A DNA stretch of 64,000 nucleotides from an uncultured delta proteobacterium (GCA_963711565.1 CAVQEQ010000004.1:992001-1056000), one strand, 5' to 3'; positions 22,669 through 60,279 are shown, numbered from the stretch's first letter. The notes: a model not told the origin generated them from the letters alone. A program made the numbers and translations.

Positions 22669-25014
22669 ATGGCTTCACCGAATAACAACATTATGATCAG
22701 CCGCGAACTGCAGGTAACCCTGCAACTCGCGATGACCGAAGCCGTTAACCGGCGCCATGAGTTCGTCCAACTCGAGCATCTGCTGTTCGCGATGCTCCAT
22801 GACGTGACGACGACCACGATTCTGAAAAGTTGCGGCGCCGACCTCGACGCGCTGCGGCGCAAGCTCGCGCATTACCTCGACGAGCAGGTCGAGCGGATGC
22901 CCAAGGGCGAAGAAGTCTCGCCGCGCTACGCGATCGGAGTGCAACGTGCTCTCCAGCGGGCAGCCTTGCATGTGCAGTCGGCGGGTCGCCAGGAGATCAC
23001 GGGCGGCAACGTGCTGGTCGCGATGTTCCACGAGACCGAATCGCCGGCGATTTTCTTTTTGCAGGAGCAGGGCGTCACCCGCTTCGACGTGATCAATTTT
23101 ATTTCGCACGGAGTGTCGAAGGCGGGCGCTGAGGATGAGGAGGACGGCGACGAATCCGACGGCAAGGATTCAGTCGAGCGCGAAGGCCATGAGCATGAGG
23201 GCGGCGACGAAGAGGGCGAGCGCAAGATGTCGCCGTCGAAGGCGCTCAACACTTACGCAATCAATCTCGCCAAGCGCGCGGCGGACGGAAAGATCGATCC
23301 GCTCGTCGGCCGCAAGAAGGAACTCGAGCGCGCGGTGCATGTGCTGCTGCGCCGGCGCAAGAACAATCCCGTGTTCGTCGGCGAGGCTGGAGTCGGCAAG
23401 ACCGCGCTGGCCGAGGGGCTCGCGCTGGCGATTCACAAGGGCGACGTGCCCGACGCGCTGAAGGGCGTCGAGATTTACGCGCTCGACATGGGCGCGCTGC
23501 TCGCGGGCACGCGCTTTCGCGGCGATTTCGAGCAGCGGCTAAAGGCGGTCATCAAGGCTGTAGTCGGCGACTCGAAACGGATTTTGTTCATCGACGAGAT
23601 ACACACGATAGTCGGCGCGGGAGCGGCGTCCGGCGGGACGATGGATGCGTCCAACCTGCTGAAGCCGGCGCTCGCGTCGGGCGATTTGCGCTGTATCGGA
23701 TCGACGACCTACCAGGAATACAAGCGCTCGTTCGACAAGGACAAGGCGTTGGCGCGCCGCTTCCAGCGAATCGACGTGGTCGAGCCGACGCAGGACGAGG
23801 CTGTGCAGATTCTCAACGGCATCAAGTCGTACTACGAGAAGCATCACAACGTCCGCTACACCAACTCGGCGATCAGATTGTCGGTCGAGCTGTCGGCGCG
23901 CTACGTCAACGACCGCTTCCTGCCGGACAAGGCGATCGACGTGATGGACGAGGCTGGAGTCGCGGGACATTTGCGCGGCACGGGCGCGACGGAGCCGGTG
24001 ACGGTCGGCACGCGCGACGTCGAACGCACGGTGGCGCGGATGGCGAAGATTCCGGAGCGCACGGTGTCGGCGACGGATCGCGGACGCTTGCAGACGCTCG
24101 ACGAAGATATGAAGCAGGCGGTGTTCGGCCAGGACGAGGCGATCAACTCGGTCGCTCGCGCGATCAAGCTCGCGCGATCGGGGCTGAGCCATCCCGATAA
24201 GCCGGTCGGCGCGTTCCTGTTCGCGGGACCGACGGGCGTCGGCAAGACCGAAGTGGCGCGGCAGCTCGCGAAGGTGATGGGCGTCGAGTTCATCCGCTTC
24301 GACATGAGCGAGTACATGGAGCGGCACACGGTGTCGCGGCTGATTGGCGCGCCGCCGGGCTACGTCGGCTTCGACCAGGGCGGACTGCTGACCGACGCAA
24401 TCAACAAGACGCCGCATGCAGTGCTGCTGCTCGACGAGATCGAAAAAGCGCATCCCGATTTGTTCAACATCCTGTTGCAGGTGATGGATCACGCGACGCT
24501 GACCGACAACAACGGTCGCAAAGCGGATTTCCGCAATGTGATCCTCGTGATGACAACCAACGCCGGCGCGCAGGAACTGTCGCGCGCGATGATCGGCTTC
24601 AGCGGCGGCCTCGGCCAGGGCAATCCGAAGGGCGTGCTCGAGCGAATGTTCTCGCCTGAGTTCCGCAACCGCCTGTCCGCAACAATCGAATTCGCACCGC
24701 TAAGTCCCGCGACGATGGAACGCGTGGTCAACAAGTTCATCGCGGAGCTGCAAGAGCGTCTCGACAAGCAGAAGGTCACGCTGACAGTAACGCCGGCCGC
24801 AAAGAAATGGCTGGCGGAACATGGTCACGATCCCCGCTTCGGCGCGCGTCCGTTGGGACGCCTGATCGAAAACGAGATCGCGCGGGAGTTAGCGGACCAG
24901 GTTCTCTTCGGCAAACTGACCAAAGGCGGCAAAGCAACCGCAGACCTCGACGGCGACAAGCTCGCATTCTCATACGAGCCGAATCCCGCCCGCCAGCCCG
25001 CCCCAGTAGCGTAA
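22669..25014 (+). CDS. clpA: Clp protease ATP-binding subunit ClpA
   Basis: Two AAA modules ([16 protein letters not shown]), DMSEYME, no middle domain, follows clpS. Confidence 0.96.
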
Positions 25015-25015
25015 C

Positions 25016-25098
25016 CTCCGATACCCTCCTCCGATGTTGGAGGAGGGTTAGGGTGGACGACCATTTGCGGCGCGATTGTCTGTTGCGCCGCGAGCATT
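25016..25098 (+). repeat. Family A arm, copy 1, directly after clpA stop
   Basis: CCCTCCTCCGATGTTGGAGGAGGGTTAGGGTGGACGACCATTTGCGGCGCGAT. Confidence 0.92.
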
Positions 25099-25174
25099 GA
25101 ATTGATCGGACATCTGGCGAAGTCGCCGCCAGAGCCAAAGCAGAAAAAGTGAACCTAGGAGCCGATTTCTGGTC

Positions 25175-25690
25175 GTGACAGAACCAGTTGTCATTGAGGA
25201 TTACGATCCCGGGTGGCCGCGACGATACGAGACGTTGCGCGCGAGGGTTGCCGACGCCCTCGGCGGACTGGCGGCGAGGATCGAGCACGTCGGCAGCACG
25301 TCTGTCCCCGGACTTGCTGCCAAGCCGACCATCGACATCGTTGTTCTTCTCCGATCCGTGCACGATCTTCCTGCCGCTATAGAGGGACTTGCTCGACTTG
25401 GCTATGCGCATGAGGGCGATTTTGGAATCGTCGGTAGAGAAGCATTCGCGACCCCGCCAGGATACGCCGTGCATGACCATCACCTCTACGTGTGCGCCCC
25501 TGATTGGGTTGGATTCGAAGATCAAATACTCTTCCGCGATTATCTGCGCGCCCACCCAAGAATTGCTAACGCGTATGCGCGCTTGAAGCGCTCATTGGCG
25601 AACAAGCACCGACATAACCGTCCCGCCTATCCCGACGCGAAGGCTGGTTTCGTCAGAGCCGTTCTTGAGCGCGCCCGCCACGCACGATGA
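25175..25690 (+). CDS. GrpB/UPF0157 nucleotidyltransferase-fold protein
   Basis: YDPGWP, IEHVGSTSVPGLAAKPTIDI, HHLYV, FRDYLR.HP, YARLK. Confidence 0.92.
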   Translation: MTEPVVIEDYDPGWPRRYETLRARVADALGGLAARIEHVGSTSVPGLAAKPTIDIVVLLRSVHDLPAAIEGLARLGYAHEGDFGIVGREAFATPPGYAVHDHHLYVCAPDWVGFEDQILFRDYLRAHPRIANAYARLKRSLANKHRHNRPAYPDAKAGFVRAVLERARHAR

Positions 25691-25737
25691 CTACTTGTCA
25701 AGTATATAATTCCCCATGGAGGAGGGAATTCTGATTT

Positions 25738-25776
25738 TCAGATCTGATCGGCGGGCTTCTGCAGCACCGTTGGCTG
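25738..25776 (-). pseudogene. Orphan copy of the nadB 3' end (QPTVLQKPADQI*)
   Basis: Aligns codon for codon with nadB 26986-27024 (HPTVLQKPSEQI*). Confidence 0.85.
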
Positions 25777-25827
25777 GCATTCTCATACGAGCCGAATCCC
25801 GCGAGACGACCTGCGCCGGTTGCGTAA
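25774..25827 (+). pseudogene. Orphan copy of the clpA 3' end ([17 protein letters not shown])
   Basis: Aligns with clpA 24961-25014 ([17 protein letters not shown]), 16/17 aa identical. Confidence 0.93.
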
Positions 25828-25828
25828 G

Positions 25829-25911
25829 CTCCGATTCCCTCCTCCGATGTTGGAGGAGGGTTAGGGTGGAGGACCATTTGCGGCGCGATAATCTGACGCG
25901 CCGCACGCATT
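25829..25911 (+). repeat. Family A arm, copy 2, directly after the orphan clpA stop
   Basis: Near-identical to 25016-25098. Confidence 0.92.
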
Positions 25912-26284
25912 ACGTCCCCTTCTTGCCGGTTCGCAGCGTTGGCTGGAGAACTTCGGCGATCCGCGCAACAACGGAATCGACATCGCTCATTACATCGAAG
26001 TTCCAGAATCGCAACACGCGATATCCGTTGCCGCGCAGGAACTCGCTCCGGCTTTCGTCCCGCTCTTCCTGATCGGCATGCTGTGAACCATCAACTTCGA
26101 TGATCAGTCTCGCCTCCAGGCAAACGAAGTCGACGAAGAAGGGGCCAATTGAGAATTGCCTGCGGAATTGGAACCCATCGAGCTGCCTTTTGCGCAAGCG
26201 CGACCACAACTTCTGTTCGGCTTCCGTGGCGGTGGCGCGCAGTCTGCGCGCGGTATCGCGTGGGAGCGTTGGTTCGTGAGGCAC
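25910..26284 (-). CDS. DUF559 / Vsr-like PD-(D/E)xK endonuclease
   Basis: ARRLR..TEAEQKLW.RLR, FRRQ.IG.F.VDF.C, IIEVDGSQH, D..R..FL...GYRVLRFWN; GTG start inferred. Confidence 0.92.
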   Translation of the reverse strand: MPHEPTLPRDTARRLRATATEAEQKLWSRLRKRQLDGFQFRRQFSIGPFFVDFVCLEARLIIEVDGSQHADQEERDESRSEFLRGNGYRVLRFWNFDVMSDVDSVVARIAEVLQPTLRTGKKGT

Positions 26285-26306
26285 GCGCGTGCACTTGTCA
26301 GAATTA

Positions 26307-26380
26307 CGGCGCAGCAGACAATCGCGCAGCAAATGGTCCTCCACCCTAACTCTCCTCCAACCTAGGAGGAGGGAATCAGG
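26307..26380 (-). repeat. Family A arm, inverted copy, overlapping the DsbA-like stop
   Basis: Reverse complement reads TTCCCTCCTCCTAGGTTGGAGGAGAGTTAGGGTGGAGGACCATTTGCTGCGCGATTGTCTG. Confidence 0.92.
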
Positions 26381-26975
26381 CGATTGCCAATCCAGCTTCG
26401 GTGAGGCGAGCCTCCAGCACTGGGATTCGGTCGTGGCCCCAGAACGGTTCGCCTTCGAAGAAGAATAGCGGGACGCCGAAGACGTGATCATTCGCGGCTT
26501 CGTCCTGGGCGCGCTGATAGGCTAGGGCGCCATCGCCTGACAGATATTTGCGATAGTCGCCGGCTGACATGCCGAGACTCGCGATCACACTCGCGACTGC
26601 GTCGGGCTGATCGGCTTCCAGTTCGCGCTTGAAGAACAGTTCGTACACTCGACGACTGTAATCGAGCAGGCGGCCATGCTGCTCCGCGAAGAGGCCGCCG
26701 ATCAGCGCGGGAGTTGTGTCGTAGACCTTCAGCGGTCCGCGAATTATCAGGCCGCGCGGCTTGGCCCATCGGCGGGCGTCGAGGTACGAGTACTGCGCCT
26801 TGTGCTCCGAGTAGAGACTGCGCTCGCCCTTGCCCTTGATGCGTAGCTGGAAGGGAATCCATCGCAGCCGAATGCGATAGCGCTGCTCGAGCGCGAACGC
26901 GGGATCGAACGCGAGGTAAGCGAACGGACTCTTGTAGTCCGAGTACATTTTCACTTCTTTTTTCAGTGAATTCAC
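26376..26975 (-). CDS. DsbA-like / 2-hydroxychromene-2-carboxylate isomerase (GST kappa) family
   Basis: YSDYKSPFAYLA, DARRWA, VFGVP.F...GEPFWGHDRI. Confidence 0.88.
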   Translation of the reverse strand: MNSLKKEVKMYSDYKSPFAYLAFDPAFALEQRYRIRLRWIPFQLRIKGKGERSLYSEHKAQYSYLDARRWAKPRGLIIRGPLKVYDTTPALIGGLFAEQHGRLLDYSRRVYELFFKRELEADQPDAVASVIASLGMSAGDYRKYLSGDGALAYQRAQDEAANDHVFGVPLFFFEGEPFWGHDRIPVLEARLTEAGLAIA

Positions 26976-26985
26976 ACCTAGAGTT

Positions 26986-28617
26986 TTAGATCTGCTCCGA
27001 AGGTTTTTGCAGCACGGTCGGATGCACGAATTCCGCGCCGCCCGTCTCGGGATGATCGATGTTGTAGTGCAGGCCGCGCGATTCGCGCCGGCTCATCGCC
27101 GAGCGCACGACCAGCTCGGCGACCTTCGCCAGGTTGCGCAGCTCGATCGTGTCGGCGTCGAGCAGATGGTCCCAGTAGTAGCTGTGAATCTCGTCCTTCA
27201 CCAGCTCGATTCGTCGCAGCGCGCGCTCGAGGCGCCGGTCGCTGCGCACGATGCCGACGTAGTTCCACATCAGGCGGCGAATCTCGTCCCAGCTCTGCGT
27301 GATCATCACGCGCTCCTCGCTGCGAATCGCGCGTCCGGGGTTCCATTCGGGAAACTCGGGCGGCGCACCACCGCGTGATATGACGATCTCTCGCGCCGAG
27401 TTGAATCCACGACGGCCCATCACGGCCGCTTCGAGCAGCGAGTTCGACGCGAGGCGGTTGGCGCCGTGCAGCCCGGTCATCGCAACTTCGCCGGCCGCGT
27501 ACAGGCGCGGAATCGAGGTGCGGCCGTCGAGGTCGGTCTGCACGCCGCCGCACATATAATGAGCGGCCGGCACGACCGGGATCGGGCCCTTGGTGAGGTC
27601 GTAGCCAAAGCTCAAGCATCGCTTGAAGATATTCGGGAAGCGCCGCTTGATGAAATTCGCCTCGCGATGGCTCAAATCCAGGTACACGAAATCGAGGCCG
27701 TGACGCTTCATCTCGGAATCGATCGCGCGCGCAACAACGTCGCGCGGCGCCAGCTCGGCGTCGGTATGGTAGCGCTTCATGAACGCGGTGCCGTCGGGCA
27801 ATTTCAGAATGGCGCCCTCGCCGCGCAGCGCCTCGGAAATCAGAAACGACTTGGCGGCGGGATGGTACAGGCAGGTCGGATGGAACTGGTAGAACTCGAG
27901 GTTCGCGACCGACGCGCCCGCGCGATATGCCATCGCGACGCCGTCGCCCGACGCGATGTCGGGATTGGTGGTGTAGAGATAAACCTTGCCGGCGCCGCCC
28001 GTCGCAAGCATCGTGGCGCGCGAAATCACTTTGCGGATTTCGTGCGTGTTGCGATCGAGCGCATAGACGCCCCAGCATGCGCCTGGCCGTCCGGCGCTGG
28101 GAGTCTCGACCAGCAGATTGATCGCGACGTGATTTTGCAGCGTGCGGATATTCGGGCGCGCGGCTGCGGCCTCGGTCAGCGCGCGCATTATCTCGCGGCC
28201 GGTGAGGTCTTGCGCATGCAGCACGCGACGATGGCTATGCCCGCCTTCCTGGCCGAGGTCGTATTCGAGTTCGTTGTCGTCGGTCCCCGTGTTCTCGACG
28301 CGCGTGAAGCGAGTGCCGAGCCGGATCAGCTCGCGCACCGCCTCGGGACCTTCGCGCACGATGGTCTCGACAGCGGCGCGATCGCACAGGCCCGCGCCTG
28401 CGCGGATGGTGTCGTCGATATGCGATTCGAACGAGTCGTCGACGCTCCACACGCTGGCGATGCCGCCCTGCGCGTACGCGGTGTTGGCCTCGGAGCTGCC
28501 GGCCTTGGTCAGCACGGTGACAGTGCCGACTTCGGACGCCTTGATGGCGAAGGTCAGGCCGGCGATGCCGCCGCCGATTACCAGGAAGTCGCTGAATAGT
28601 TGCGCGTTATGCCTCAT
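26986..28617 (-). CDS. nadB: L-aspartate oxidase
   Basis: GGGIAGL, YAQGGIA, EGGHSHRRVLH, QFHPT, LISEALRGEG, LAPRD, HY.CGG, GLHGANRLASNSLLE, ESRGLHY. Confidence 0.96.
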   Translation of the reverse strand: MRHNAQLFSDFLVIGGGIAGLTFAIKASEVGTVTVLTKAGSSEANTAYAQGGIASVWSVDDSFESHIDDTIRAGAGLCDRAAVETIVREGPEAVRELIRLGTRFTRVENTGTDDNELEYDLGQEGGHSHRRVLHAQDLTGREIMRALTEAAAARPNIRTLQNHVAINLLVETPSAGRPGACWGVYALDRNTHEIRKVISRATMLATGGAGKVYLYTTNPDIASGDGVAMAYRAGASVANLEFYQFHPTCLYHPAAKSFLISEALRGEGAILKLPDGTAFMKRYHTDAELAPRDVVARAIDSEMKRHGLDFVYLDLSHREANFIKRRFPNIFKRCLSFGYDLTKGPIPVVPAAHYMCGGVQTDLDGRTSIPRLYAAGEVAMTGLHGANRLASNSLLEAAVMGRRGFNSAREIVISRGGAPPEFPEWNPGRAIRSEERVMITQSWDEIRRLMWNYVGIVRSDRRLERALRRIELVKDEIHSYYWDHLLDADTIELRNLAKVAELVVRSAMSRRESRGLHYNIDHPETGGAEFVHPTVLQKPSEQI

Positions 28618-57527: not shown

Positions 57528-58220
57528 TTGAATTCGATGGCGGCGATCAAGCGTCTATTCGGAAATTTTCGTTCGTCGCGCGCGAAGAAATCCGACTCCG
57601 AAGCGCGTTCTGCGATTGAATGGGTTGTGACCGGGCTGGGGAATCCCGGCGAGGAATACGCGCGCTCGCGCCACAACTCCGGCTTCATGACGATCGATCG
57701 GATCGCCAAAGCGAAAGGCGTCGAGCTTGGCCGGCGCCGATTCAAAGGCGTCACCGCTGAGACTACGCTGGCCGAAAAGCCGGCGCTCCTCGTCAAGCCG
57801 CAGACTTTTTACAACCTGAGCGGCGAATGCGTTTCGGCTCTGCTCGGCTATTTCAAAATTCCGCCCAATCATCTGATCGTGCTGCATGACGAGCTCGACC
57901 TCGAAGCAGGGCGCCTCAGGATCAAGCAGGGCGGCGGCGACGCCGGCAACCGCGGCGTTCGTTCAATCGCCGAGTCGCTCGGAACAACGGATTTCATCCG
58001 CGTCAGAATCGGAATCGGCCGGCCGCCCGGATTTACCGTCGAAATGGAACCTGGCCGCCAGCCGAAGACCGAAGAAAACAAGGACTACCTCCTCCGCCCG
58101 ATGACGGCCGCCGAGCGGCAGGCGCTGGCGCCGATCCTCGAGCGCGCCGCGAGCGCGGTCGAAGCGATCGCCGCCAACGGACTCGAAGCGGCGATGAATC
58201 GTTACAACCAGCGCAGCTGA
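57528..58220 (+). CDS. pth: Peptidyl-tRNA hydrolase
   Basis: GLGNPG..Y..SRHN.GF, KPQTFYNLSG, HDELDL, RVRIGIGRP. Confidence 0.94.
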   Translation: MNSMAAIKRLFGNFRSSRAKKSDSEARSAIEWVVTGLGNPGEEYARSRHNSGFMTIDRIAKAKGVELGRRRFKGVTAETTLAEKPALLVKPQTFYNLSGECVSALLGYFKIPPNHLIVLHDELDLEAGRLRIKQGGGDAGNRGVRSIAESLGTTDFIRVRIGIGRPPGFTVEMEPGRQPKTEENKDYLLRPMTAAERQALAPILERAASAVEAIAANGLEAAMNRYNQRS

Positions 58221-58253
58221 AGTTGATTCAGGGTGATCTGCGGAGAATCCTGA

Positions 58254-59975
58254 ATGTCGCCAAACACGCGCGCCTCTGAAGAATCCGTTTCTCGTTTCAA
58301 AGGAATCGACGCGGCGCTGCTCGCGCTCCTGCTCGCGCTCGCGATGCTCCTCATCGCCGACTCGGGATTTGTCAGCGGACAGGAGTTGTGGCCGATGCCC
58401 GACGCGGTCGAATACGCCGCGCTTGCCGTCAACCTCGATCGCGGCCTGGGCCCGGTACTCCATTTCGGCGGGGATACTTATCCGAGCCGCTACACCATCG
58501 GCTATCCACTGATCCTCGCCGCGGCCTATCCAATTCTGGGCCGCAAGCCCGAGCGGCTATGCCTCGTCACGGCGCTGACGGCATTGATCGCGATCGCCGG
58601 CCTATACCTGCTGACGCTGTGGGTATTCGATCGGCCGAGCGCAATGGTGGCCAGTCTGCTGCTGGCTACCTCGCCACATTTTCTCGGACTTTCCACTTGC
58701 GTGCTGAGCGACGTTCCTTCGCTCGCCGTCGTAATCCTCGCGGTGCTGGCATTTTCATATGCCGAGGAAAAACAAAGCCTGATTGCGTCAGCGCTGTGCG
58801 GGATTCTGGTCGGCCTGGCCGTCACAATCCGTGTCACCAACGGCGCCATTTTGATCGGAATGCTCGCGGCGGCATTGCTCGTGCAACCGCGGAGAGCGCA
58901 ATTCGCGCGAGTGACCGCGTTCGCGATCGGATTCGTCGCATTTCCAGGATTGCAGGTTGGGCTGAATCTGCATTACCTCGGTTCGCCGCTGTCGAACGGT
59001 TACGCGTTCTGGCAGCCGGATGTTTACAGCTCATTTTTCACCGCCTTTGATCCGCGCTACCTCTTTGTCCCTTGGGATCCGTCGCATCGGCACGGAAATT
59101 TCGTCGCTTATGCGATCGCGATGCTCGGTCTCGACGGCATCTTCGGCCAGCTTAATTTGGGCGCTGAGTCACGAACGTTATTTCGCGCGCGCTACGGGTT
59201 CTACCCGTTTCCGGTGGTGCTGTTCGCAGGGTTGGGCGTGTTCCTGGCGATGCGCCGCAAGCGCGACGCACTTACGATGCGCACAGTGATTTTGGGCTTG
59301 AGCTTTCTCGCCGCGCTGTTGCTGGTTTACCTCCCTTATTTCTATGTCGATCCCCGTTTCTTGCTGCCGGCGTTGTTCATCGTTTTTGCCGCGGCAGGCT
59401 ACGGGCTGATCAGCGCAAATCGAAAGCTCGAGCGCGGATGGGCTGGATTTGTGGCGATTGCCCTCGACGTGGTTGTCGCCGGAGCGATCGTGGTGCAGAC
59501 GCTTTCGCGGCTTGCGATGCCGCTGCCACGGGATTCGAGGCTCGTTGCCGACGTGCTCGCGCTCCGGCCCCGGCTCAGCAACGCCGTGCTGGTCAGCGAC
59601 ATTTCTCTACAGTGGCTCGAACTTTATGCGGGCGGAGAAGGAACCGAATTTGTCGGCCTCCGCAGTCATTTTGGCGCGCAACCGGTCAACGAAGAACATT
59701 TGCACTGGCTCTACGAGAAAAGGTCCAAAGGATGGTCCGGGCCGACGCCGCCAATATTGCTCCTTCCCGATGGTGGCCTCGACCCGGCCGAGGCGCGCCG
59801 GCTCGCCGACGAGGACAAGCAGGGACGCCCGGTTTACCTGCTCGTCTTGAATGCCACCTCCAGCGAATGGTTGGGGGTGCTCAAGCGGGAGGTCGCCGAG
59901 ATCGATCGCGGCTTCGCGCTCGAAAGGATCGCGCACTATCCCGAAATGGGGCTTTACCGTTTGCGGCCGCGCTAG
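58254..59975 (+). CDS. GT-C fold (PMT/ArnT-like) membrane glycosyltransferase
   Basis: PDAVEY loop after TM1, GYP, LSDVP, DPRFLLP; ~11 TM plus soluble C-terminus. Confidence 0.75.
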   Translation: MSPNTRASEESVSRFKGIDAALLALLLALAMLLIADSGFVSGQELWPMPDAVEYAALAVNLDRGLGPVLHFGGDTYPSRYTIGYPLILAAAYPILGRKPERLCLVTALTALIAIAGLYLLTLWVFDRPSAMVASLLLATSPHFLGLSTCVLSDVPSLAVVILAVLAFSYAEEKQSLIASALCGILVGLAVTIRVTNGAILIGMLAAALLVQPRRAQFARVTAFAIGFVAFPGLQVGLNLHYLGSPLSNGYAFWQPDVYSSFFTAFDPRYLFVPWDPSHRHGNFVAYAIAMLGLDGIFGQLNLGAESRTLFRARYGFYPFPVVLFAGLGVFLAMRRKRDALTMRTVILGLSFLAALLLVYLPYFYVDPRFLLPALFIVFAAAGYGLISANRKLERGWAGFVAIALDVVVAGAIVVQTLSRLAMPLPRDSRLVADVLALRPRLSNAVLVSDISLQWLELYAGGEGTEFVGLRSHFGAQPVNEEHLHWLYEKRSKGWSGPTPPILLLPDGGLDPAEARRLADEDKQGRPVYLLVLNATSSEWLGVLKREVAEIDRGFALERIAHYPEMGLYRLRPR

Positions 59976-59988
59976 TCCGCGCGCGCAC

Positions 59989-60039
59989 GCGAAGCACGGA
60001 TCGGAAGCCGCGATCAATCGCTACAACCAGCGTCGTTAG
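59989..60039 (+). pseudogene. Orphan copy of the pth 3' end (AKHGSEAAINRYNQRR*)
   Basis: Aligns with 58170-58220 (AANGLEAAMNRYNQRS*). Confidence 0.85.
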
Positions 60040-60279
60040 AGTACATTGAGCGACTTCATTAATAACAAATTGTCTCTAACTCTAATCATTCTGTTGACTT
60101 AGCGACGGACCCCGCGCTAAGCATCACTTCATTGGAATCCTCGTCGCGTTGGTGCGGGTAAGGTTTCGCGTCCCGCTCGAATAGCAGCGCTGTTCGCGCA
60201 GATGCGAGAGGGGCCTGATTGGCCCCGTCGCCCACGCGCTTCGTTCGGGTTCGTAATCTTTACCTCGGATAGGGCTGCC

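Follow-up and report, generated by a model that had tools for sequence, protein, structure and literature searches.

Islands that carry an integrase together with a substitute 3' end of the target gene are well known, for example phage 21 and e14 in icd, and cis-mobilisable elements accrete in tandem at fda in Streptococcus thermophilus. Dispersed REP/REPIN repeats and a RAYT gene, which encodes an IS200/IS605-type Y1 transposase, together make up a 'REPtron'. A third precedent is homology-facilitated illegitimate recombination (HFIR), the joints of which usually show an overlap of 3-8 nt. According to the relevant parts of PMC5361080 and PMC3240628, HFIR is known in Acinetobacter, Streptococcus pneumoniae and Pseudomonas stutzeri (de Vries & Wackernagel 2002, Prudhomme et al. 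2002 and Meier & Wackernagel 2003, all via PMC5361080). Kirchberger et al. (2017, PMC5361080) also invoke an HFIR-like process without an integrase to explain the 3' regions left orphaned by sequential or C-terminal displacement in T6SS effector-immunity arrays and at Rhs loci, and displacement at Rhs/CDI loci is attributed there to Jackson et al. (2009) as well.

The locus studied here is the clpA-nadB interval of a soil Candidatus Binatus genome, which was assembled from metagenomic data into 4 contigs. The window, that is, the whole stretch of DNA that was analysed, comprises 64,000 nt. Its sequence, ORF calls, a repeat search and a Pfam search gave the following layout:

22669-25014, plus strand: clpA, an ORF of 781 aa (Pfam AAA_2, AAA_lid_9, ClpB_D2-small, Clp_N)
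24961-25014, plus strand: working clpA tail, the 3' end of clpA
25015-25100, plus strand: arm A, a dispersed repeat of about 85 nt that begins right behind the clpA stop codon
25175-25690, plus strand: GrpB cargo gene, 171 aa (Pfam GrpB, 1.4e-49)
25706-25732, no strand: degenerate hairpin, right border of the grpB cassette (repeat search and sequence)
25738-25773, minus strand: orphan nadB tail, PTVLQKPADQI plus TGA, 12 codons including the stop (repeats, codon comparison, relatives)
25774-25827, plus strand: orphan clpA tail, 17 codons plus TAA, directly abutting the orphan nadB tail
25828-25913, plus strand: arm B, left inverted repeat of the DUF559 element, fitting a relaxed triplex-motif pattern
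25910-26284, minus strand: DUF559 gene, 124 aa, GTG start, Vsr-like PD-(D/E)XK fold (Pfam DUF559, 4e-40)
26295-26380, minus strand: arm C, right inverted repeat of the DUF559 element (repeat search); its first bases overlap the stop codon of the DsbA-like gene
26376-26975, minus strand: DsbA-like thioredoxin-fold gene (Pfam DSBA, 4.9e-25)
26986-28617, minus strand: nadB, L-aspartate oxidase, 543 aa (Pfam FAD_binding_2, Succ_DH_flav_C)
26986-27021, minus strand: working nadB tail, the 3' end of nadB

The order and coordinates of the features in the preliminary description of this DNA hold at all four levels of analysis. The repeat search revealed a direct repeat of 139 nt (24960-25098 versus 25773-25911, 86% identity) and a direct repeat of 44 nt (25733-25776 versus 26981-27024, 75% identity). 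In addition, two inverted repeats of 71 nt (25020-25090 and 25833-25903) are each about 90% complementary to 26307-26377, and the degenerate hairpin contains a 12-nt arm terminus (25718-25729) that matches the termini of the arms at 12 of 12 positions.

The clpA copy measures 54 nt and the nadB copy 36-39 nt (25738-25776 at its longest). The nadB-derived part stops at 25773 and the clpA-derived part begins at 25773-25774, leaving an overlap of at most 1-3 nt. It had been proposed that the two tails are fused over a shared CTG, with an H>Q change at the junction codon, but the CTG is more simply read as the leucine codon of the clpA copy; as AAGCTGG is the natural clpA form in 7 of 33 relatives, the nadB part ends at 25773. 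Back-to-back 3' ends cannot be native, and thus the joint is a novel junction. A junction of this kind could in principle be created in a metagenome assembly of 4 contigs by merging the interval fillings of two co-occurring strains, and strain variants of the locus do co-occur in soil runs. However, the joint is present with 0 differences in three non-branching contigs that were built independently in three soil studies (X1, 25028-25858; X6, 25639-25851; X10, 25720-25858), and a fourth contig (X8) spans 25604-25797. Because contigs of three independent studies bridge the joint, an assembly chimera is rejected at the 31-mer level and the chance of such an artefact is negligible; the check for a haplotype chimera across 25690-25830 that had been called for thus favours a real joint.

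Both orphans are recoded copies of the working tails, as had been reported, and are 19-25% diverged from them. The clpA orphan differs in 8 of 17 codons, with 10 nucleotide changes, eight of them at third positions, and a single amino-acid change (Q>R). In the nadB orphan, 7 of 11 codons differ (8 nucleotide changes, 7 at third positions), resulting in two amino-acid changes, S>A and E>D, and the stop codon is TGA instead of TAA. When the same number of changes was placed randomly in 200,000 trials per tail, the probability of as few amino-acid changes was 2.5e-5 for the clpA tail and 0.0047 for the nadB tail. The protein tail of ClpA is kept in 33 relatives, with variable codons, and the identity of the clpA 3' end is 80-91% across the genus; upstream of the orphan clpA tail the frame is closed, with an open length of 30 codons. 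Over the orphan nadB allele and the 6 nt past its stop codon, there are 2 nt differences from the end that nadB naturally has in a different species of the genus (L033). The almost exclusively silent differences indicate that both tails would have diverged under selection as gene ends, and not after an in-place duplication. The codon comparisons and the L033-like allele therefore support the earlier view that each orphan once served some lineage as a functional gene end.

The grpB cargo gene has a GC3 of 0.60, compared with 0.73-0.88 in the neighbouring genes. At the DNA level it was not found among 47 genomes of the genus, its best match among 400 genomes of the phylum has 41% identity, and its best match overall has 80%, the named matches being MAGs of Caulobacteraceae/Caulobacterales. 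Judged by composition and relatives, the gene is foreign. This also bears on the possibility that the region bounded by the clpA and nadB tails was duplicated in tandem in place, followed by differential loss of cargo and allelic replacement of the working tails. Such a duplication yields exactly the back-to-back joint observed, and close strains do show allelic replacement of the working nadB end: contigs of X1 and of run X2 are identical to the window over 25846-26948, and then show 20 substitutions and 13 gap positions at about 26949-27049. Nevertheless, at least four further events would be needed, grpB is foreign and absent from all 47 genus genomes, and close strains seem to differ by the presence of the whole cassette, so that the event looks recent, whereas the orphans are considerably diverged. 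An origin by tandem duplication is therefore very unlikely.

It should be noted that Pfam revealed no tyrosine or serine recombinase in the five genes of the locus, nor did it find one among 16 ORFs from the cargo of relatives and 30 ORFs located at the other orphan-tail loci. The locus resembles the integrase islands in that a recoded duplicate of a gene 3' end flanks an insert and elements can stack at one gene end, but it differs from them in the lack of a recombinase in or near the cargoes, in the variable lengths of the duplicates from locus to locus, and in the inclusion of the tail of the opposite gene. A site-specific element borne by an integrase was rejected, since there is no recombinase gene and the extents of the orphan clpA tails are not constant in the five genomes that have one.

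We propose instead, with a probability of roughly 0.6, that the orphans are a recombination scar and that a foreign allele of the interval was added by HFIR or a close variant of it. DNA of another Candidatus Binatus lineage with a different clpA-nadB filling would have been spliced in, by homologous pairing within one of the flanking core genes and non-homologous end-joining at the other end. If the non-homologous join landed in the last codons of a gene, one end of the fragment and one displaced resident gene end would be left fused back to back; the incomer would be either the grpB cassette or the cassette with DUF559 and dsbA. The silent bias of both tails, the L033-like nadB allele and the absence of grpB from the 47 genomes all point to a foreign lineage, and the joint fits the union of one end without homology at a short microhomology. 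The overlap of merely 0-3 nt is, however, shorter than at usual HFIR joints, and a donor with the order clpA-arm-grpB-hairpin-nadB was found neither in the 47 genomes of the genus, nor as the exact 32-nt pattern of the joint in JGI metagenomes, nor among 80 GrpB loci. The nearest of 30 relatives keeps changing along dsbA-nadB, the region covered by the sliding-window comparison, with no clear breakpoint.

A survey of 32 clpA/dsbA-nadB loci revealed that the junction is an insertion hot spot in the genus. A DsbA-like gene is the usual convergent neighbour of clpA (27 of 32 loci). The gap is 1 nt, the empty state, in six loci and 33-128 nt in six others, while ten loci contain a DUF559 element and ten contain other cargo (hicBA, an ABC transporter, Sel1, DUF1275, HNH and others). 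Orphan clpA tails occur in 5 of the 32 loci and have lengths of about 52, 54, at least 80, 121 and 136 nt. As the lengths differ, the joints are not site-specific, and by this comparison the spread is that expected of illegitimate joins. Orphan tails are also found elsewhere in the genome: a stop-anchored whole-genome scan, with the last residues of each gene reversed or shuffled as decoys, yielded 33 orphan-like matches versus 1 (reversed) and 0, 3 and 4 (shuffled) for the decoys. Of these 33, about nine can be credibly assigned to genuine genes: Usp, RNase E/G, a methyltransferase (with hicBA-type cargo in between), a response regulator, Pth, GtrA, OEP and two others. GC3 is mostly low (0.56-0.65) in the cargo that separates these genes from their orphans.

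The arms combine a leader of 8 nt with a pyrimidine/purine hairpin, a TTA loop, a third block rich in G and another hairpin, and they appear to be a variant of the BoxC/PIT/TM class of putative triplex-motif repeats. Shared features are the 9-nt pyrimidine block, a loop of 3-6 nt, the purine block, the 3-nt TTA loop and the G-rich block, as well as the intergenic location, singly or in palindromic pairs. In contrast to that class, the Binatus arms have the second hairpin and the leader, which often abuts a stop codon, and the arms of the locus are CCCTCCTCC / GGAGGAGGG / GGGTGGAGG variants that lie off the strict consensus. Within this genome, 7 arm-family repeats match the published consensus CCCTCNCCC N3-6 GGGNGAGGG N3 GGGNGAGGG (PMC4666352) exactly and 20 match a relaxed form of it; of the three arms at the locus none fits the strict form and one (arm B) the relaxed form, while all three keep the three-block build. 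The genome contains about 24 scattered arms, many of which begin at a stop codon; inverted pairs enclose DUF559 genes in 3 cases, and about 17 arms stand alone. The DUF559 domain itself (PF04480) scores 136.5 bits versus a cut-off of 20.6 and covers positions 5-109 of 109, and there are eight full copies in the genome. Orthologues occupy the same locus in nine relatives, in either orientation. As in the REP/RAYT system, a small nuclease-type gene is enclosed by a repeat in inverted orientation, single copies of which are also dispersed between genes, but the DUF559 protein has a PD-(D/E)XK/Vsr-like fold and is not a Y1 transposase, and mobilisation by it is hypothetical.

The preliminary description had suggested that this element drives an integrase-free stacking of cassettes, in which cassettes are actively captured at gene 3' ends, through cutting by DUF559 or recombination of the triplex/hairpin arms there. 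The intact DUF559 gene with inverted arms on both sides would fit, as would the same package of gene and inverted repeats of this motif at 24 of 27 DUF559 loci from other taxa of many phyla, the numerous arms at stop codons, and the flips of DUF559 orientation within one well-supported clade. Moreover, triplex-motif loci in E. coli are more rearranged than controls in the portions of Holder et al. (2015, PMC4666352) that concern them, in which DUF559 goes unmentioned. However, arms and DUF559 are both missing from 3 of the 5 loci that contain an orphan clpA tail, 0 of the approximately nine other orphan tails in the genome lie beside an arm, and the joints vary in position, with orphan lengths of about 52-136 nt, and are situated in coding remnants and not in an arm. 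In the literature, we found no report of DUF559 acting on or mobilising such repeats, and none that links a Vsr-like nuclease with REP. A dedicated stacking mechanism is therefore very unlikely. The triplex-motif arms likely destabilise the site and provide extra homology, yet are not required.

A further route would be of the Campbell type, in which a foreign copy of the interval (clpA tail, arm, grpB, hairpin and nadB tail) would have been circularised at the nadB/clpA joint and then inserted through one homologous crossover within a resident arm or tail. Over the first 61 nt, arms A and B share 95-97% identity, compared with 81% for the adjoining tails, which would fit a crossover or conversion, and the 139-nt direct repeats would permit re-excision. 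In run X2, the depth of the grpB contig is 18.8 versus 164-170 for both flanks, suggesting that a dominant close strain is without the grpB cassette. The clpA tail of this strain is of the working type, from which it differs at 3 clustered silent sites, and is unlike the orphan, as would be expected if the strain shows the ancestral state. These findings fit a Campbell-type insertion with both orphans foreign, or a secondary deletion between the 139-nt repeats, no less well than a simple HFIR event anchored in clpA. If the Campbell-type route were true, both orphans would be foreign and both working tails resident. It is nevertheless unlikely, because it presupposes that 0.8 kb was circularised illegitimately in a donor, which is a rare event, that the circle was transferred without being able to replicate, and that about 60-140 nt of homology sufficed for recombination; in addition, neither a circle junction, which contigs cannot reveal, nor another carrier was seen, and the other four orphan-bearing loci of the genus require no circle.

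HFIR, which had been named as the known alternative to stacking, is thus the best explanation. The locus shares with HFIR the foreign DNA beside a presumed homologous anchor, the far end joined without homology, the cargo without a recombinase gene and the outcome of an insertion instead of an exchange. It differs in that the event is read from a natural scar and was not observed, that a gene end was duplicated and no resident DNA deleted, and that the end of the fragment is the tail of the opposite convergent gene, so that two orphans arose at once. As in the accounts of T6SS, Rhs and CDI loci, each new addition at a conserved gene moves the older 3' pieces farther downstream, where they persist as orphans, and the alleles derive from other strains; in those accounts, however, the arrays retain working immunity genes and are presumed to be selected, whereas the orphans here are dead ends, 12-18 codons long, of housekeeping genes, with unrelated cargo (grpB, DUF559, hicBA and others). 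One-sided recombination is likely, and under HFIR the DNA would have entered as a linear fragment, by natural transformation or a similar process; the claim that an allele was added rather than swapped agrees with a joint that is real in three studies and with cargo that lacks an integrase. Because the join lies inside the last codons of a gene, the interval was lengthened and not exchanged, and the clpA-nadB scar of Candidatus Binatus is likely to be of a known kind and not the mark of a new mobile system.

Examination of the sequence of 24700-27300 with an ORF list, a repeat finder and Pfam confirmed the coordinates and the order of the elements in the preliminary description of the locus, which belongs to a 4.84-Mb metagenome-assembled genome of four contigs.

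Elements of the clpA-nadB interval (window positions)
22669-25014, + strand: clpA (ORF, Pfam)
25015-25100: arm, an 85-nt repeat that starts directly after the clpA stop codon (repeat finder)
25175-25690, + strand: grpB (ORF, Pfam)
25706-25732: degenerate hairpin with a 12-nt arm terminus
25738-25773/6, - strand: copy of the nadB end
25774-25827, + strand: copy of the clpA end
25828-25913: second arm
25910-26284, - strand: DUF559 gene (ORF, Pfam)
26295-26380: third arm, inverted
26376-26975, - strand: DsbA-like gene (ORF, Pfam)
26986-28617, - strand: nadB (ORF, Pfam)

Two 3' ends that lie back to back, as the copies of the nadB and clpA ends do here, cannot be native, and the joint between them is therefore a novel junction. 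The stretch is partly present in 20 public soil and rhizosphere metagenome runs from 13 studies. In three runs from three studies, the joint is bridged by non-branching contigs with 0 differences to the window and more than 31 nt on each side (X1, 25028-25858; X6, 25639-25851; X10, 25720-25858), and a contig of run X8 covers 25604-25797, reaching just 21 nt past the joint. With the joint spanned in X1, X6 and X10, a chimera of two haplotypes, which the preliminary description had considered, is excluded at the 31-mer level, and an artefact is scarcely conceivable. Run X1 is possibly close to the source sample, though its contig departs from the window at 26949-27049.

The clpA copy has 17 codons in common with the working tail, of which 8 differ, with 10 nucleotide changes (8 at third positions) and a single amino-acid change; in the nadB copy, 7 of 11 common codons differ, with 8 nucleotide changes (7 at third positions), two amino-acid changes and, in addition, a TAA to TGA replacement. 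When the same number of changes was placed at random in 200,000 trials, equally few amino-acid changes arose by chance with probabilities of 2.5e-5 (clpA) and 0.0047 (nadB). The ClpA tail peptide is near-invariant in 33 relatives while its codons vary between species, and the orphan nadB allele (PADQI, TGA, then 'aaatca') is nearly identical to the natural nadB end of one relative (locus L033), with 2 nt differences. The silent-site bias, the variable codons under a kept peptide and the match to L033 thus bear out the earlier proposal that each orphan once worked as a gene end in some lineage. The same proposal had read the junction codon as an H>Q replacement in the nadB copy, and this detail does not stand: CTG is better read as a Leu codon of the clpA copy, natural in 7 of 33 relatives, and the true overlap at the joint is therefore at most 1-3 nt.

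All of these features would follow from a single one-sided event, in which a linear piece of DNA from a different Binatus lineage would have paired homologously within one of the flanking genes. Its other end, by chance lying 36 nt into the tail of the opposite gene, would have been attached with no homology some 54 nt ahead of the clpA stop codon or, in the mirror-image version, within the resident nadB tail. Both working genes would have stayed intact; one orphan would be the fragment's own terminus, and the other the resident end that was displaced. Such an event matches the homology-facilitated illegitimate recombination (HFIR) of transformable bacteria, and we assign an HFIR-like origin a probability of roughly 0.6. 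An HFIR-like process has also been proposed for the orphaned 3' regions of T6SS and Rhs loci (PMC5361080).

Either cassette may have been the incoming one: the donor was not found, the mosaic profile is flat, and the strain pattern in run X2 fits several models. When 25100-25830 was compared with 47 genomes of the genus, only the gene tails matched, and an exact 32-nt pattern over the border between the hairpin and the nadB tail gave 0 matches in JGI metagenome contigs. At 80 metagenomic GrpB loci (at most 77% identical), no arm, clpA, nadB, dsbA or DUF559 was found nearby. A sliding-window profile from dsbA to nadB places all relatives at much the same distance (85-97%), with a different closest relative from window to window; the profile is flat and hence uninformative on the crossover. 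The grpB gene, flanked by a full arm on one side and by an arm remnant on the other, is foreign, with a GC3 of 0.60, and no DNA match in the 47 genus genomes; its best protein hit reaches 41% identity among 400 genomes sampled from the phylum and 80% in a collection of 5.8 billion proteins. As the closest named relatives (72-80% identity) come from Caulobacteraceae/Caulobacterales MAGs, this cargo probably crossed phyla before it arrived at the locus.

In X2, the grpB contig (25028-25767) has a depth of 18.8 and both flanks have depths of 164-170, which suggests, at most, that this run is dominated by a very close strain without the grpB cassette; the clpA tail of that strain is of the working kind apart from three silent changes that lie in a cluster. 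The pattern fits an HFIR-like event, equally well a later deletion between 139-nt repeats, and equally well a Campbell-type insertion, in which a circular copy would have entered through the arms by a single homologous crossover and which we consider unlikely as the origin of the joint. The contigs end at arms, so that an excised circle or an empty site lies outside their reach, and uncovered stretches in runs X8, X9, X10 and X12 are uninformative. Contigs of X1 and X2 equal the window at 25846-26948 and then have 20 substitutions and 13 gap positions over 26949-27049, a segment that covers the dsbA start and the nadB end, with a nadB tail of the PLDQI type. Here, a short segment differs by allelic replacement in strains that are otherwise very close; thus, allelic exchange at these gene ends continues between close strains. 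A tandem duplication combined with allelic swaps is, as an origin of the double orphan, very doubtful.

The region downstream of clpA was taken from 33 genomes of the genus (the unpublished G018 and G023 were omitted), and 32 loci, window included, had clpA and dsbA or nadB in range. Locus L031 lies at a contig edge, and L009 has neither dsbA nor nadB within 8 kb of clpA, so that the locus is rearranged there; in L009 (relative G004), clpA is followed by an 811-aa ORF, by eye a putative tRNA synthetase, and then by other genes. In six of the 32 loci, clpA and dsbA converge with 1 nt between their stop codons; another six have a spacer of 33-128 nt, which in three of them is a lone arm-type hairpin. 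Ten loci harbor a DUF559 element of about 546 nt framed by inverted arms, in either orientation, and ten contain other cargo (hicBA, a HicB remnant, ABC transporter, Sel1, DUF1275, HNH and DUF6968 by Pfam, as well as unnamed ORFs); dsbA is absent from five, and grpB is found in the window alone.

Orphan clpA tails are present in five of the 32 loci, namely the window (about 54 nt), L005 (about 136 nt), L010 (at least 80 nt, decayed and frameshifted), L020 (about 52 nt) and L022 (about 121 nt), and three of the five (L005, L020 and L022) have neither arms nor DUF559. A starting codon shared by the orphans of the window, L010 and L020 was considered as a hint of a specific site and was discarded, as alignment showed that the L010 orphan extends further upstream with a frameshift; close-lying joints number only two. 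In L010 (oriented, 420-1320), an 'empty' arm pair (arm+, 126 nt, arm-) abuts a full arm-DUF559-arm element, the orphan tail follows these elements, and dsbA is missing. In L005 (oriented, about 940-970), a second, very short clpA-like end (PAPVA and stop) lies directly after the hicA stop codon and precedes the 136-nt orphan; an earlier round of insertion may have left it behind, or the similarity may be fortuitous.

Of the roughly 24 arms that nhmmer detects in the source genome, three inverted pairs frame DUF559 genes and about 17 stand alone; many of the arms start at or over a stop codon. An Rfam search of 24000-28000 had no hit even at E values of up to 1, which places the arms outside the curated RNA families. 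Among the arms of the genome, 7 fit the published TM(ECO) consensus (earlier name BoxC/PIT) exactly and 20 fit a relaxed form, and the three arms of the clpA-nadB locus are TM(ECO) variants with the same three-block build. Holder et al. (2015, PMC4666352) report that, across 56 E. coli strains, rearrangements affect TM loci much more frequently than intergenic control sites, by a mechanism described there as unknown. Inverted repeats of the triplex motif, with the same hairpin and a TTAGGGTG-type block, flank 24 of 27 DUF559 loci from many phyla, and the package of gene and triplex repeats is therefore very widespread; in the literature searched, we found no paper linking DUF559 to triplex-motif repeats or to mobility. 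A tree built from 16 DUF559 proteins groups the copies from clpA loci, and copies of either orientation occur within one well-supported clade (97/95), so that the gene appears to have flipped between its arms; the opposed copies at L013, L014 and L023 suggest such an inversion. Deletion between arms may have left the lone hairpins that occupy the clpA site of L006, L011 and L033.

Orphan tails were also sought throughout the genome: the 15 C-terminal residues of each of 9036 candidate ORFs were compared with every stop-anchored peptide within 6 kb. A first control, tails against the neighborhoods of other genes, gave unstable counts (10, 23 and 215) because paralogue arrays match one another, and was replaced by decoy tails. 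Limited to the same strand, to ORFs of at least 120 codons and to closed upstream frames, the scan yielded 33 hits, versus 1 for reversed and 0, 3 and 4 for shuffled decoys. Low-complexity and tandem-paralogue hits were removed by eye, and candidates h (C4 358545) and j (C4 1540583) were dropped because their 'parent' ORFs look like antisense artefacts by GC pattern. About nine credible orphan tails remain beyond clpA and nadB; Pfam confirmed seven parents (Usp, RNase E/G, methyltransferase, response regulator, peptidyl-tRNA hydrolase, GtrA and OEP), and two have no Pfam name.

Further orphan tails in the source genome (G000, contig:positions)
C1:476479/477273: Usp gene
C1:1021842/1022858: unnamed gene, 125-nt repeat of 99% identity
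C3:1316863/1318150: unnamed gene
C3:1027644/1032797: RNase E/G, 5.1 kb of cargo
C3:95333/96056: methyltransferase, cargo a DUF1902/HicB-like and HicA pair
C4:760261/761062: response regulator
C4:528024/528956: GtrA
C4:1625279/1627902: OEP

The peptidyl-tRNA hydrolase orphan lies in the window itself (57528-60040): the end of the gene (57528-58220) recurs about 1.8 kb downstream with a stop near 60037 and 10 of 15 residues matching, and a PMT_2 glycosyltransferase gene (58254-59975) separates the two. The HicB-like/HicA cargo of the methyltransferase locus is of a type found at clpA in two relatives. Some orphans are silently recoded (8 silent to 3 replacement changes for RNase E/G, 10 to 6 for the response regulator), and others are nearly identical to their parents. 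Cargo ORFs at these loci mostly have a GC3 of 0.56-0.65, versus about 0.8 for core genes. Pfam revealed no integrase among 30 ORFs at the genome-wide loci, and a search with the nhmmer arm set found no arm adjoining any of the approximately nine further orphans.

These results bear on the proposal that the triplex-motif arms and the DUF559 nuclease form an active, integrase-free capture device that stacks cassettes behind core genes, at their 3' ends. In this scheme, foreign or ectopic DNA would be recruited by breaks or stalled forks at arms directly behind stop codons, the recoded gene ends would be by-products, and the double orphan of clpA and nadB would represent the stacking of cassettes caught halfway. 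The nuclease-driven stacking envisaged in the preliminary description finds no support, and orphan tails form here just as well in arm-free places; such a device is highly unlikely, and a dedicated process driven by DUF559 or the arms is an equally improbable source of the joint.

At this hot spot with triplex repeats, additive recombination has thus left a genuine double scar of unusual neatness. No new mechanism comes to light in it. It provides a clean natural case, verified in independent metagenomes, of foreign genes added at the ends of housekeeping genes without an integrase, in which one event stranding both convergent gene ends means that an entire alternative allele of the intergenic islet was added next to the resident allele. 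The case also connects such a hot spot with the BoxC/PIT/TM repeats, whose published link to genome instability is unexplained. Given the five orphan-bearing loci of the genus and the roughly nine others in this genome, these uncultured soil bacteria appear to gain genes regularly by the route that such scars record, and the scars can be used as markers of past recombination between lineages.
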